A DNA stretch of 45,400 nucleotides from Selenomonadales bacterium (GCA_017442105.1 JAFSAX010000134.1:1-45400); one strand, 5' to 3'; positions 41,236 to 45,400 are shown, counted from the stretch's first letter. Program-made: numbers and translations. Notes: a model not told the origin generated them from the letters alone.

Positions 41236-41694
41236 TTATTTTTTGACAAACGCTACCGCCATCCATTGTCTGAATAGTTTGCCTTCTACCATGTCTGGAT
41301 CTTCGAAGTAGAGTGCTTTTGCCATCTTTACATAGATGTCTGCACTTGTACCCATGCTTGCCGACAAGTCGGAGTACAACATATTCATCGCGTAGTAGAA
41401 GTCGCACTTATGCTCGATGCCGTGCGCGAGAGCCAGTTTGTCGGTATCGTCTTTCGTCCAATGACCACCGACGGTGCCGTCCACGTTGTGCATCTTGCCG
41501 ACAGCCATTTTCGCCGTATCTTCATCGAAGTGCATACCGTGGAGCAGGCAATGCAGTTTTGTGACCATTGCCCAATACGTTTCAGGACAATACTTCTTCA
41601 AATCTTCTGCCATCTCGCAGACAACGTGTTTTGCTTCTTTATACTTCTCTGGATGCTGTTCAAGCTTCTCCATGTACTTCTTTAATTCGTGCAT
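41236..41694 (-). CDS. Cargo protein E: 152-aa helical His/Met-rich protein of unknown function
   Basis: The ATG at 41694 shares one base with the D stop (TAATG). GAGGAGGG RBS. Sequence begins MHELKKYMEKLEQHPEKYKE and contains GKMHNVDGTVGGHWTKDDT. Confidence 0.65.
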   Translation of the reverse strand: MHELKKYMEKLEQHPEKYKEAKHVVCEMAEDLKKYCPETYWAMVTKLHCLLHGMHFDEDTAKMAVGKMHNVDGTVGGHWTKDDTDKLALAHGIEHKCDFYYAMNMLYSDLSASMGTSADIYVKMAKALYFEDPDMVEGKLFRQWMAVAFVKK

Positions 41695-42077
41695 TATGCG
41701 CCCTCCTCTGCCGTTCCTGCGGTCGTAGTAGGTGCAGGTATACCAACTATCGCACCGCAATTTTCAGCTCGCAGGAAGCCATTCCAGAGGACAAAACGAG
41801 CGGTGTCTGCCGCGACCTTCACGACATATCTGCATCTCGTCTTGACTTGGTTTGCATACACGTTATGACCGCATTTGCGAACGAGTGGGTACTGTGTAGC
41901 ATCCGTCCCGATCTGAATCACAACTGGCATCAGATTAGTCGCAGTCGCAGGAATGTCCTGTGCGATTCTGATAACGTATTGACAGCAGTTCTGGAAGGTC
42001 GCCTGCGGCAATGTCAGCACAAGCGTATCAGCCGTCACCGCGACAGCCGTGGTCAATATCTCTTTACAACAATTCAT
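41694..42077 (-). CDS. Cargo protein D: 127-aa beta-rich, Cys-studded protein starting MNCC
   Basis: AAGGAGG RBS. Cys residues occur at MNCC, QNCCQ, RKCGH, TRCRY and ENCG. Confidence 0.7.
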   Translation of the reverse strand: MNCCKEILTTAVAVTADTLVLTLPQATFQNCCQYVIRIAQDIPATATNLMPVVIQIGTDATQYPLVRKCGHNVYANQVKTRCRYVVKVAADTARFVLWNGFLRAENCGAIVGIPAPTTTAGTAEEGA

Positions 42078-42091
42078 GTCTATTCCTCCTT

Positions 42092-42120
42092 ATAAAAAGA
42101 GAGGCGTTACCGCCTCTCTC
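42092..42120 (-). terminator. Intrinsic terminator or attenuator between cargo genes C and D
   Basis: Minus RNA forms AGAGAGGCG-GUAA-CGCCUCUCU followed by UUUUAU, directly abutting the D RBS. Confidence 0.65.
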
Positions 42121-42142
42121 ATAGTCACGCCGAAGCGGAAAG

Positions 42143-42865
42143 TTATGCAGCTACACCGCAACCGTATCCACAGCCGCCATAGCCGTAATTGTGACGAATC
42201 GATTCATACGGGCTCGACACAACATACGCAGGTACTACAGGCGGACGGACCGTATTGACGATGTTTTCCGTCTGGCGAATGTTGCCGATCTGAAGCTGTG
42301 CCGCTTGCAGGTCGAATTGAAGCTGTGCGATGCGCTGATCTTTCGCGTTCGATTCCATCAAGCAGAGCTTGTCAAGAATCTTCTGCGTATTTGCGGTCGC
42401 ATTATTCGTGATCGTGCACGTGTTCTGTGCGTTTTCAAAGCGAACCGCATCAATGTTGCGGTTCGTTTCGCAACAACATTGCTGTGCCGCGAATCTGTTC
42501 TCGGCGATCGCCGAGCCGAGAGCAAAACGATTCTCAAGAACATCACGACCAAGACCGTTGAAGCCCTGAAGCATCGTAGTATTTTGTGCATAGAAGCCGT
42601 CAGCAAGACCGTTCTGCACGCCACGAATACCGTTCTTGATATCCTGCGAATTGAAACCATCAAATAAATCGTTGCGAGTAAGTGCACCGTTGGCGAATGC
42701 CGCCATGCCGTTGTTGCCCCAACCGCCGAAACCACCGCCACCCAAAAGAGCGAACAGCACTAAGAACCACATACAACCGCCACCGCCCCAACCGAAGCCG
42801 TCATTGTAACCGCGATTATTAATGTCCATGACAGGCACTACGCCTGCGCCATTTTCAAATGCCAT
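42143..42865 (-). CDS. Cargo protein C: 240-aa Gly/Asn/Gln/Cys-rich membrane protein
   Basis: The ATG at 42865 lies 6 nt after GAGGTG; the track GTG start is part of that RBS. Features are GWGGGGCMWFLVLFALLGGGGFGGWGNNG, QQCCCETNRN and the C-terminal NYGYGGCGYGCGVAA. Confidence 0.7.
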   Translation of the reverse strand: MAFENGAGVVPVMDINNRGYNDGFGWGGGGCMWFLVLFALLGGGGFGGWGNNGMAAFANGALTRNDLFDGFNSQDIKNGIRGVQNGLADGFYAQNTTMLQGFNGLGRDVLENRFALGSAIAENRFAAQQCCCETNRNIDAVRFENAQNTCTITNNATANTQKILDKLCLMESNAKDQRIAQLQFDLQAAQLQIGNIRQTENIVNTVRPPVVPAYVVSSPYESIRHNYGYGGCGYGCGVAA

Positions 42866-42917
42866 ACTTTTCACCTCGTTTGTTTTATTTTTTATCTGAA
42901 CTCTGACTGCGCGCTTG

Positions 42918-43145
42918 TCAAAGTTTCATTCCGAATTGTGATAAGAATTGATTGAGGGAGGCATCGTCCATTCCTCTCTGGCGAGCGAGATTGCGAACAG
43001 TCGCTTTCAGCTCGTCCTCGTTTTTGCCTTGTGCCATCTGCATTGCTCGACCGAACATCGGGTCATTACCGAACTGCTGTTGCATCAGCGCCATTGGATT
43101 CTGACTTGACTGTAACATTTGCATCATTTGCATTGGATTGAACAT
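42918..43145 (-). CDS. Cargo protein B: 75-aa Gln/Met-rich protein
   Basis: GGAAGGGGTG RBS. Sequence begins MFNPMQMMQMLQSSQNPMALMQQQF. Its first 80 nt overlap gene A in another frame. Confidence 0.5.
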   Translation of the reverse strand: MFNPMQMMQMLQSSQNPMALMQQQFGNDPMFGRAMQMAQGKNEDELKATVRNLARQRGMDDASLNQFLSQFGMKL

Positions 43146-43530
43146 TAGTTTGCACCCCTTCCAGTTTTCGTTCTAAGACCTCGATGCGTGACTGCAGAGC
43201 CGCGATGATGTCGCCCTCCTTTGGCTGTGCCTGCGAAATCACACGCTTATACTCCTCAAATATCGGCATCCCATCAAGTCCGATACTCTTTTTGTATATG
43301 GTCGCCTCGGACGGACAGTCGAAATAGTGCGGGGTTCCATCTAAATCTATTTGAGCCGCTTTTGCCTCGTCTCTGCCCGTCACAAGTCGACCTTTCAAAC
43401 CACTCGGCATAGGCATCGAGCCGTATGCCTGTGGCTGAATCTGCTGTTGCATAGACCGTAACCGTTGCTGATACATCATCTGCATAGGATCGGGCGGTAT
43501 GTGTTGATAGCCGTAATTAAAGCCGTTCAT
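43066..43530 (-). CDS. Cargo protein A: 154-aa protein with a Gln/Met/Pro-rich N-terminus
   Basis: GAGGTGAGGA RBS. Sequence begins MNGFNYGYQHIPPDPMQMMYQQRLRSMQQQIQPQ, followed by the core LKGRLVTGRDEAKAAQIDLDGTPHYF. Confidence 0.65.
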   Translation of the reverse strand: MNGFNYGYQHIPPDPMQMMYQQRLRSMQQQIQPQAYGSMPMPSGLKGRLVTGRDEAKAAQIDLDGTPHYFDCPSEATIYKKSIGLDGMPIFEEYKRVISQAQPKEGDIIAALQSRIEVLERKLEGVQTNVQSNANDANVTVKSESNGADATAVR

Positions 43531-43710: not shown

Positions 43711-43743
43711 AAAAAAAGAAGCACCCCCTTAAAAAGGGAGTGC
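43711..43743 (-). terminator. Intrinsic terminator ending the late/lysis operon
   Basis: Minus RNA forms GCACUCCCU-loop-AGGGGGUGC (one G-U pair) followed by UUCUUUUUUU. Confidence 0.8.
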
Positions 43744-43977
43744 CTCTTGTATTGCCTTATGCAATTTGTCGTAGGCACGTTCTATCCGTCTGCCTACTGT
43801 TTTTTCAGAGAGATTCATGTGATACGCGATCTTCACATTGCTCCACCGTTTGCTGAACTTCAGCCGAATGATCTCACATTCTTCCTCGCTCAAGTTCGCT
43901 TCTTCGATGAGCGTATCTAATTCAGATCGGATCGCTCTGTCGGCGACATCACGTGCTGACTTGCGGTGTTCTCGCAT
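43729..43977 (-). CDS. 82-aa sigma-70 region-4-like HTH protein
   Basis: The ATG at 43977 lies 7 nt after GGAGG. LSEEECEIIRLKFSKRWSNVKIAYHMNLSEKTVGRRIERAYDKL is the HTH. Confidence 0.65.
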   Translation of the reverse strand: MREHRKSARDVADRAIRSELDTLIEEANLSEEECEIIRLKFSKRWSNVKIAYHMNLSEKTVGRRIERAYDKLHKAIQEALPF

Positions 43978-44159
43978 TCGTTTCCTCCTTCTATGTAAGA
44001 GAACAGGAATGCGAGATTGAATGCAATACTCGCAACCAAGAGCAATACCGCGTAGAAACATCCTCTCTTCAATCGGCTAATTACTCTTTCCTGTTCATTG
44101 ATTTTCTCCGTTGATTTAACCATGTGCATTGTTGCGATTGCTTCCTTTACCTCTGTCAT
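43917..44159 (-). CDS. 80-aa coiled-coil plus single-TM protein in the lysis cassette
   Basis: AGAGGGGGA RBS. TM segment is FYAVLLLVASIAFNLAFLF. Its tail overlaps the next gene by 61 nt. Confidence 0.5.
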   Translation of the reverse strand: MTEVKEAIATMHMVKSTEKINEQERVISRLKRGCFYAVLLLVASIAFNLAFLFSYIEGGNECENTASQHVMSPTERSDLN

Positions 44160-45234: not shown

Positions 45235-45400
45235 TTTTTCTCCTCCTTCTCAAATTGATCGGGGATCCCATCTTTGTCGGTATCGACCATACAGCCTGCG
45301 ATGAATGTCACGAAAGCGATCATTCCACCGCCGACCATTTCGGTGATAAGAGAAAGGAGATCGCGTAGTGCGACCTCTCCTTCTTTCCACAGCCACAGCC
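45231..45400 (-). CDS. Putative holin, 3-prime part (same ORF as 1-286; 45260-45400 duplicates 1-141)
   Basis: In-frame continuation ...DKDGIPDQFEKEEKK. The stop TGA at 45231-45233 overlaps the amidase ATG. Confidence 0.6.
   Translation of the reverse strand, partial: LWLWKEGEVALRDLLSLITEMVGGGMIAFVTFIAGCMVDTDKDGIPDQFEKEEKK
45260..45400. repeat. Terminal direct repeat, copy 2
   Basis: Identical to 1-141. Confidence 0.95.

Follow-up and report, generated by a model that had tools for sequence, protein, structure and literature searches.

A phage gene cassette with an exchangeable slot for small beta-rich proteins, putative knob subunits tethered by N-terminal cysteines

The DNA studied here, a contig of 45,400 nucleotides assigned to a Selenomonadales bacterium (GCA_017442105.1, JAFSAX010000134.1:1-45400; hereafter the window, meaning the contig at its full length), carries on its minus strand a cassette of five genes, A-B-C-D-E. 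The fourth of them, gene D, encodes a small protein with seven cysteines that we regard as a putative exchangeable knob subunit (Table 1). The two ends of the contig repeat each other by at least 100 bp (1-130 and 45270-45400) and an open reading frame (ORF) for a holin-like protein (MMNKVKDAMS...DQFEKEEKK) runs unbroken across their junction, indicating that a complete phage genome of ~45.3 kb was assembled as a circle and placed in the bin of a 1.7-Mb metagenome-assembled genome (MAG). The window is thus the circularly assembled genome of a temperate phage, and an integrated prophage is not demonstrated. Read along the minus strand, the region presents the holin-like ORF, an Amidase_3 endolysin, a small sigma-70 region-4 protein, a strong terminator, the cassette and, beyond an intergenic region, a convergent integrase.

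Table 1. Gene D, the other cassette genes and the associated signals, with positions counted from the first letter of the window
Feature	Position	Strand	Description	Basis
Gene D	41694..42077	minus	127 amino acids (aa); predicted beta sandwich with N-terminal CC; type-1 occupant of the putative knob slot of the cassette	ORF, homologues, AlphaFold2 (pLDDT 86), weak phrog_31654 match
Ribosome-binding site (RBS) of D	42084..42091	minus	AAGGAGGA; strong; 6 nt 5′ of the ATG	Read directly from the sequence
GC-rich hairpin	42097..42121	minus	AGAGAGGCG-GTAA-CGCCTCTCT then TTTTTAT; terminator-like; immediately 5′ of the RBS of D	Folded
Small conserved hairpin + GTGAC	42125..42141	minus	TCCGCTTCGGCGTGAC; just past the stop codon of C	
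Gene C	42143..42874	minus	243 aa; Gly-flanked hydrophobic segment, CCC motif, GCGYGCG tail; directly upstream of D	phrog_16490 (E = 1e-29); alignment; synteny
Gene E	41236..41694	minus	152 aa; all-alpha DUF7841; coupled to D by TAATG	Pfam PF25223 (E = 3e-21)
Gene B	42918..43145	minus	75 aa; Met/Gln-rich	Synteny in all loci with enough flank
Gene A	43066..43530	minus	154 aa; first cassette gene; overlaps B by 80 nt	phrog_21718; synteny
Intrinsic terminator, strong	43716..43748	minus	15-bp stem + T-run; separates the lysis/sigma-like operon from the cassette	
Sigma-70 region-4 / LuxR-type small protein	43729..44061	minus	Encoded 5′ of the cassette at many loci	Pfam GerE / Sigma70_r4; phrog_3512

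Gene D is a real gene. Its ORF was found where the preliminary description of this DNA had placed it, its product starts with MNCCKEILTT, and its TAA stop codon shares one base with the ATG of gene E (TAATG, 41692-41696), which indicates that the two genes are translationally coupled. A word-indexed search with D returned 67 clusters of homologues (44-94% identity), none of them annotated, and a HMMER profile search with the D family widened this to 369 clusters (50% identity), of which 183 scored E < 1e-10; a chance ORF was ruled out on these grounds. Nearly all of the best 150 of the 369 family matches are free-standing proteins of 100-170 aa, the exceptions being a D-E fusion and a spurious match to a repeat protein. 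No match to D was found in Pfam (E ≤ 1), NCBIfam or PADLOC, and a defence-system reading was rejected for want of PADLOC matches. The sole library match, in PHROGs, covers residues 8-109 and is weak (E = 3.2e-7, 31 bits); it is to phrog_31654, whose function is unknown. A Pfam scan of 136 diverse relatives of D gave only noise, with no match to DUF3992, DUF4183 or BclA_C, and searches of the PDB sequences with D alone and with the family profile gave chance-level matches only. In the species-representative genome collection, close relatives of D occur at two loci only, and none was found in 60 relatives of the genome bin to which the window belongs. As far as these searches of sequence collections go, the D family is very common yet uncatalogued.

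The seven cysteines of D (C3, C4, C31, C32, C69, C82 and C107) stand where the preliminary description had listed them, in the N-terminal CC and in the NCC, KCG, RCR and NCG motifs, the second NCC being a doublet that brings the total to seven. When their conservation was checked, the N-terminal pair proved to be kept: C3 and C4 (35 of 40 close homologues each) are retained, as are C31 (36/40), C69 (34/40) and C107 (33/40); C32 (9/40) and C82 (6/40, mostly Arg instead) are poorly kept. At least one cysteine precedes the first strand in 133 of the 136 diverse relatives, and at least two in 126, and comparison with the same relatives showed C31, C69 and C107 to be subfamily-specific. The N-terminal cysteines usually number three, with a range from zero to six and dozens of spacings, the commonest of which, C-x3-C-x2-C, occurs in 26 of the 136; a protein of this family typically contains 6-9 cysteines in all. 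In these alignments, the N-terminal cluster is the most conserved cysteine feature of the large D family.

Counted without regard to phylogeny, and therefore as indications and not proofs, the third N-terminal cysteine column co-occurs with a core cysteine, Cys35 in reference numbering (106 relatives with both, 16 with neither, 14 discordant; phi 0.64), and the C70 and C76 columns pair likewise (phi 0.76). Such both-or-neither columns are the pattern expected of intramolecular disulfides or of pairwise ligands. For the first two N-terminal columns, in which Cys makes up 88% and 74%, no partner exists inside D, and the D protein of the window retains exactly these two, without the third cysteine and without Cys35. 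The unpartnered C3 and C4 would thus fit free cysteines available for intermolecular links. Another explanation is that D is a small cytoplasmic metal-dependent protein whose cysteine clusters bind Zn or an Fe-S centre, a reading to which we give very little credence. The conserved core cysteine that accompanies the commonest spacing, the strictly anaerobic hosts with their reducing cytoplasm, and the absence of an export signal from D would all suit it, but N-terminal cysteines so variable in number and spacing argue against a metal site, as do a co-occurrence that is pairwise and not four-way, the absence of His or Asp ligands co-varying with the cysteines, and the presence of a mere CC in the D protein of the window.

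An AlphaFold2 model of D, built as a single chain on a 40-sequence alignment, reached a predicted local distance difference test score (pLDDT) of 86.2 and a predicted TM-score (pTM) of 0.77, with values above 90 in the core and low ones in the last ~20 residues. The model confidently predicts a compact all-beta sandwich of eight strands (6-8, 11-15, 18-23, 33-37, 51-56, 62-67, 83-89 and 94-99), and all five segments that had been named as strand-forming in the preliminary description fall on them. A hydrophobic stretch at residues 7-23, which includes Asp17, corresponds to strands in this model. Neither a signal peptide nor a lipobox was detected in D, which points to a protein that would be made in the cytoplasm.

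The preliminary description had compared D with the Ena proteins, the disulfide-stapled subunits of Bacillus endospore appendages, and the Foldseek search that it proposed does not bear this out: no PDB structure was matched at E ≤ 1e-3, and entries for Ena, BclA, C1q and TNF are absent among the 50 PDB fold matches listed. The top PDB folds, all weak, are parts of phage fibres, baseplates and spikes: the Pa193 baseplate/tail-fibre complex (E = 0.018, query-normalized TM-score (TMq) 0.45), the Pa223 capsid spike and T4 gp9. Among predicted viral structures, the first five matches are small relatives of D itself (22-37% identity). Next come C-terminal domains whose parent proteins bear the annotations tail fibre, collagen triple-helix repeat, receptor-binding protein and hyaluronidase tail fibre (TMq 0.44-0.55, E 1e-5 to 1e-3, root-mean-square deviation (rmsd) ~4 Å over ~97 residues). 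A crAss-like protein of 294 aa annotated as DUF7841 domain-containing (BFVD A0A8S5LXP6) also presents a D-like domain (TMq 0.61, rmsd 2.1 Å).

The genomic setting of D is strongly constrained. The order A-B-C-D is constant in every related locus with enough flanking sequence, among them a Veillonella MAG, a Bacteroidales MAG, a contig labelled Phascolarctobacterium sp. by NCBI and the cultured Clostridium perfringens phage CPD1. A homologue of C lies immediately upstream of D, on the same strand, at all D-seeded loci with enough flank, and the six relatives taken from the far end of the family each have one directly upstream; C-D adjacency is obligatory. Gene E follows D in most loci, at a spacing of -8 to +65 nt, and is displaced or absent in the Veillonella-type loci and some others. 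At one locus (L144:641-1345), D and E form a single continuous fusion ORF, open in the standard code, with DUF7841 at residues 136-237. The fusion protein (P0211) carries the record TAG=Q, but a gene-calling artefact was rejected: the TAG precedes the part encoding the D domain, and no stop codon of the standard code interrupts the D-E junction. In such natural fusions, of which BFVD A0A8S5LXP6 is another, the D-like domain comes first and DUF7841 second.

The alignment of C proteins reveals invariant CCC and NTC motifs, a Cys tail and a single Gly-zipper-like hydrophobic segment, and C is predicted to be a membrane-anchored, Cys-rich, helical protein; no charge bias that would fix its topology was found in the flanks of the hydrophobic segment. 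The AlphaFold2 model of E (pLDDT 88) consists of eight helices and has no PDB relatives by fold or by sequence, hence offers no functional clue, and no solved relatives of A and C were found either.

A C-seeded search of IMG/VR viral contigs confirmed relatives of C at at least 458 loci, the best 80 of which were inspected. At most of these 80 loci, the slot between C and E is occupied by a different family of ~140-aa beta-rich proteins and not by D. Ten of 15 members of this alternative family match Pfam BclA_C (PF18573; best E = 1.2e-9), and its profile retrieved PDB entry 9H38 (F-BclA-CTD, E = 1.3e-5) and, more weakly, BclA and C1q. Entry 9H38 is the C-terminal domain of F-BclA, a TNF-like trimer that forms the knob on the tip of an endospore appendage (PMC12357932). 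D therefore holds a position that is filled by bona fide BclA_C homologues in sister cassettes. A comparison of the two slot families by hhalign detected no relationship (probability 0.07%). Since they share the slot and are unrelated in sequence, phages interchange at least two kinds of small beta protein downstream of a highly conserved C, and D is one of these. When 83 distinct C proteins were placed on a maximum-likelihood tree, the family in the slot changed at least four times, at least three of these changes being forced by strongly supported branches, against ~24 changes with shuffled labels. Gene E is present behind either type of slot protein, and many of the BclA_C-like proteins also start with a Cys motif (MICNQ..., MACNCNQ...).

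Cysteine connectors of this kind have been described in endospore appendages. In L-Ena (Ena3A), the connector residue Cys8 is disulfide-bonded to the next ring, and an N-terminal CC motif of L-BclA, a knob protein, was proposed to dock likewise (bioRxiv 10.1101/2023.10.23.563578); CC motifs also recur in S- and L-Ena protomers and in a candidate S-Ena tip protein (PMC12357932). Like D, the L-BclA, F-BclA and BclA proteins (PDB 9H38, 1WCK) are small beta knobs made in the cytoplasm without a signal peptide, and in L-BclA a CC-bearing N-terminal connector, proposed to dock covalently on a Cys-rich acceptor, precedes the knob. Unlike BclA, D has no collagen stalk, is encoded by a phage and has no tie to sporulation; there is no sequence kinship between the two, and BclA is missing from the listed PDB folds of D. 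The S- and L-Ena proteins (DUF3992; 7A02) share with D an N-terminal Cys connector, a compact beta-sandwich body, a size of ~120 aa and the lack of a signal peptide, whereas D has neither DUF3992 homology nor an Ena fold match and belongs to a phage cassette with a membrane protein instead of an ena operon. D also differs from F-ENA, as DUF4183 is absent and its N-terminus, MNCCKEI, is not the hook M-P-psi-psi-$-P-psi (PMC12357932). The best structural neighbours of D are the distal knobs of phage fibres and receptor-binding proteins (T4 gp9 C-terminal domain, 1QEX; Pa193, 9B45), tips that are exchangeable as well; in contrast to them, D is free-standing with its 127 aa, no long-fibre C-terminus being present among the best 150 of the 369 family matches, and the similarity stays at a TM-score of ~0.5. 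Judged by its sequence, D belongs to no Ena or BclA family. A Cys-tethered knob is thus known from spore appendages; the fold of D, the phage context and the exchangeable slot are new variations on it.

The design noted in the preliminary description, an N-terminal Cys connector on a compact beta body, is indeed a conserved trait of the D family; kinship with Ena did not stand, as neither DUF3992 nor DUF4183 nor an Ena fold was matched. The analogy appears apt for the connector, and the closer analogue would be a tip knob and not a fibre shaft. That D could be an Ena-like subunit, polymerising by beta-augmentation and stapled by its N-terminal connector into a pilus-like appendage on the lysogen, we judge very improbable. 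Such a subunit would agree with a conserved N-terminal Cys cluster in the style of the Ena connectors (PMC12357932), with a small eight-stranded sandwich, with the absence of a signal peptide, as in Ena proteins, and with the cysteine of the flexible C-terminal tail (NCG, 33/40), which could permit head-to-tail links. However, D and its 136 relatives lack matches to DUF3992 and DUF4183, no Ena entry was retrieved by PDB sequence or stands among the 50 listed folds, certain D proteins have no N-terminal cysteine, the fold neighbours of D are distal knobs, and other cassettes use the slot for BclA_C-type knobs, whose role is to cap fibres and not to form them. The carriers, moreover, include phages linked to the non-sporulating Veillonella and Phascolarctobacterium. 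A spore-coat reading was rejected in view of carriers with records labelled Veillonella, Phascolarctobacterium, Bacteroidales and crAss-like. For the self-assembling fibre suggested earlier, no sign of polymerisation was seen, the fold neighbours and slot-mates of D being knob or head domains and not shafts; nor is a surface structure encoded by a prophage demonstrated, given the missing signal peptide of D, a contig that is a circular phage genome, and the non-moron positions of the cassette elsewhere.

We tentatively favour a reading in which D, instead of being a fibre-forming pilin, serves as an exchangeable head or knob whose free N-terminal cysteines tether it. Three features suggest it: a beta sandwich whose neighbours are fibre tips, a slot common to knob-type domains, and two unpartnered cysteines on a flexible N-terminus. 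D would be synthesized in the cytoplasm in step with E through translational coupling, and would fold as a compact eight-stranded sandwich, leaving C3 and C4 on a short flexible N-terminus that could tether the knob, covalently or via a shared metal, to a Cys-rich acceptor. The likeliest acceptor would be C, the predicted membrane-anchored helical CCC protein, acting as a stalk. The variable knob would then confer binding specificity on the assembly, and E could be a partner or assembly factor common to every knob type. The cysteine-mediated link to C is inferred, as are the oligomeric state, the place and time at which the assembly acts, and its ligand.

Several observations weigh against a tethered knob. 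The likeness of D to fibre knobs is moderate (TM ~0.5), and no PDB match reaches E ≤ 1e-3. The Veillonella-type D proteins and three of the 40 close homologues have no N-terminal cysteine at all, so that the connector is not indispensable. No export signal was detected in D, E or the BclA_C-like slot-mates, nor in A and B; should most of C be located outside the membrane, D, E and the slot-mates, being without export, could not meet C before lysis. In addition, the anaerobic hosts make disulfide formation in the cytoplasm doubtful. Cross-linking, if real, would take place after release, and the cysteines would otherwise bind metal. The number of cysteines in the tail of C correlates with that of N-terminal cysteines in the slot protein (Spearman rho 0.27-0.41, p ~0.04, related samples), but this correlation is weak, has clear counter-examples and is not independent of phylogeny, and it was not used as support.

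The position of the cassette in the phage genome varies: it follows the lysis genes in the window and at one related locus (L005), lies beside the integrase at three others (L002-L004) and is found among early genes in CPD1. In the Veillonella type, it stands directly 5′ of a predicted membrane protein and a putative endolysin (sequences read by eye). Two further explanations were weighed. In the first, D would be a soluble cytoplasmic partner or regulator of a membrane-active, lysis-related C that resembles class III holins in having a single hydrophobic segment and a large C-terminal domain, and D and E would tune the activity or timing of C as antiholins do; the T4 holin T and the antiholins RI and RIII offer the comparison. 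It is suggested by the proximity of the cassette to lysis genes, before or after them, here and in many phages, by the missing export signals of A, B, D and E, by the one Gly-zipper-like hydrophobic segment of C, and by the terminator or hairpin that separates the expression of D and E from that of A-C. We nevertheless consider it unlikely. The searches revealed no likeness to known families of holins, antiholins or XhlA, the phage already has a holin-like gene and an amidase, and the cassette is far from any lysis genes in CPD1 and in the phages of L002-L004. Changing external ligands would also account more readily for the repeated swaps between unrelated knob folds than the binding of one conserved partner.

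In the second explanation, D would be an accessory virion component, either a decoration or an auxiliary receptor-binding knob mounted via C and E, whose disulfides form after release. Its fold neighbours, which are domains of virion fibres, spikes and baseplates, would be those expected, the paired Cys columns suggest structural disulfides and hence an extracellular life, and in some phages the cassette ends the tail or late region. Yet terminators insulate the cassette, which comes with a small regulator of its own, is not present in all phages as an essential part would be, and is early or integrase-proximal in some; the hydrophobic segment of C would be unusual in a virion protein, and a literature search for proteomic data on the cassette found none. 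A place in the virion therefore seems quite unlikely to us.

Returning to the tethered knob, its level relative to A-C could be set by the intergenic region between C and D, which contains two hairpins. The same two-hairpin layout was found in the window and at L002, L005, L008, L012, L025, L026, L042, L046, L047 and L062-L136, the small hairpin being often followed by GTGAC. A strong hairpin with a U-run occupies the same position in most related loci, with both types of slot protein, and some loci have the strong hairpin only. The stems differ between lineages (CCGC/GCG, CCCTC/GAGG, GTGCA/TGCAC, ATACA/TGTAT) and their pairing is kept. No Rfam family was found for this element, and the GC-rich hairpin of the window is missing from the list produced by a simple terminator scan. 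The conserved layout implies that D and E are expressed behind an intra-operon terminator or processing element; the two hairpins may set the levels of D and E, either through regulated termination or as a processing site, and the one 5′ of D probably lowers or gates the level of D relative to A-C. The small sigma-70 region-4-type protein encoded upstream is a candidate regulator of the cassette.

A broader and more speculative proposal, which we hold to be rather doubtful as a whole, is that the cassette is a portable module of gut phages with unrelated hosts. It would encode a membrane-anchored stalk and a knob joined by cysteines, in effect a split BclA/TNF-type ligand, in which the knob is swapped between unrelated folds, that of D being undescribed, and its production gated by the two-hairpin RNA element, likewise undescribed. 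The assembly would bind a ligand of the host envelope or of the gut near lysis or on lysogens. Such a module would represent a new accessory apparatus of gut phages, with a specificity that can be swapped like that of tail-fibre tips, and would extend the Cys-connector principle of Ena and BclA beyond spores. The families concerned are widespread, with the cassette core gene C at no fewer than 458 IMG/VR loci and D in 369 clusters, and the proteins of the cassette have no known function, solved structure or paper: no function, structure or publication is attached to PHROG 31654, PHROG 16490, PHROG 21718 or DUF7841, the functionally unassigned entries that D (weakly), C, A and E match in the catalogues, and a literature search on DUF7841 was empty. 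A slot shared with BclA_C-type trimeric knobs and the retained unpartnered cysteines turn an anonymous ORF into a testable stalk-and-knob hypothesis, and culturable carriers exist in the Clostridium perfringens phages CPD1, CPQ4 and XP41-N3.

Several loci show particular arrangements of the cassette. The out-of-frame overlap of A and B (80 nt in the window, 43066-43145) recurs at L002, L012, L026 and others, where it measures 25-80 nt by tblastn coordinates; this recurrence indicates a conserved feature and no annotation accident. At the Veillonella-type loci (L054-L059 and L010), D starts with MRTTAVAV..., C overlaps D without intergenic hairpins, and the E-like genes are found 1-4 kb upstream and not behind D. 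Two cassettes have been invaded by mobile genes of the endonuclease type. In the closest MAG relative (L009:4580-5990), the frame of C ends after 154 aa and an ORF of 272 aa with NUMOD1 and helix-turn-helix domains lies between C and D; in CPD1 (L008:3567-4190), a Cys-rich ORF of 207 aa, HNH-like by eye and without a Pfam match, is located between B and C. Finally, at a locus of a high-GC lineage (L142:1407-2264), C is longer (285 aa) with a doubled CCC motif (SECCCDT..., SDCCCDV...), and E reaches 275 aa because DUF7841 is preceded by a long N-terminal extension rich in Arg, Met and Gly.

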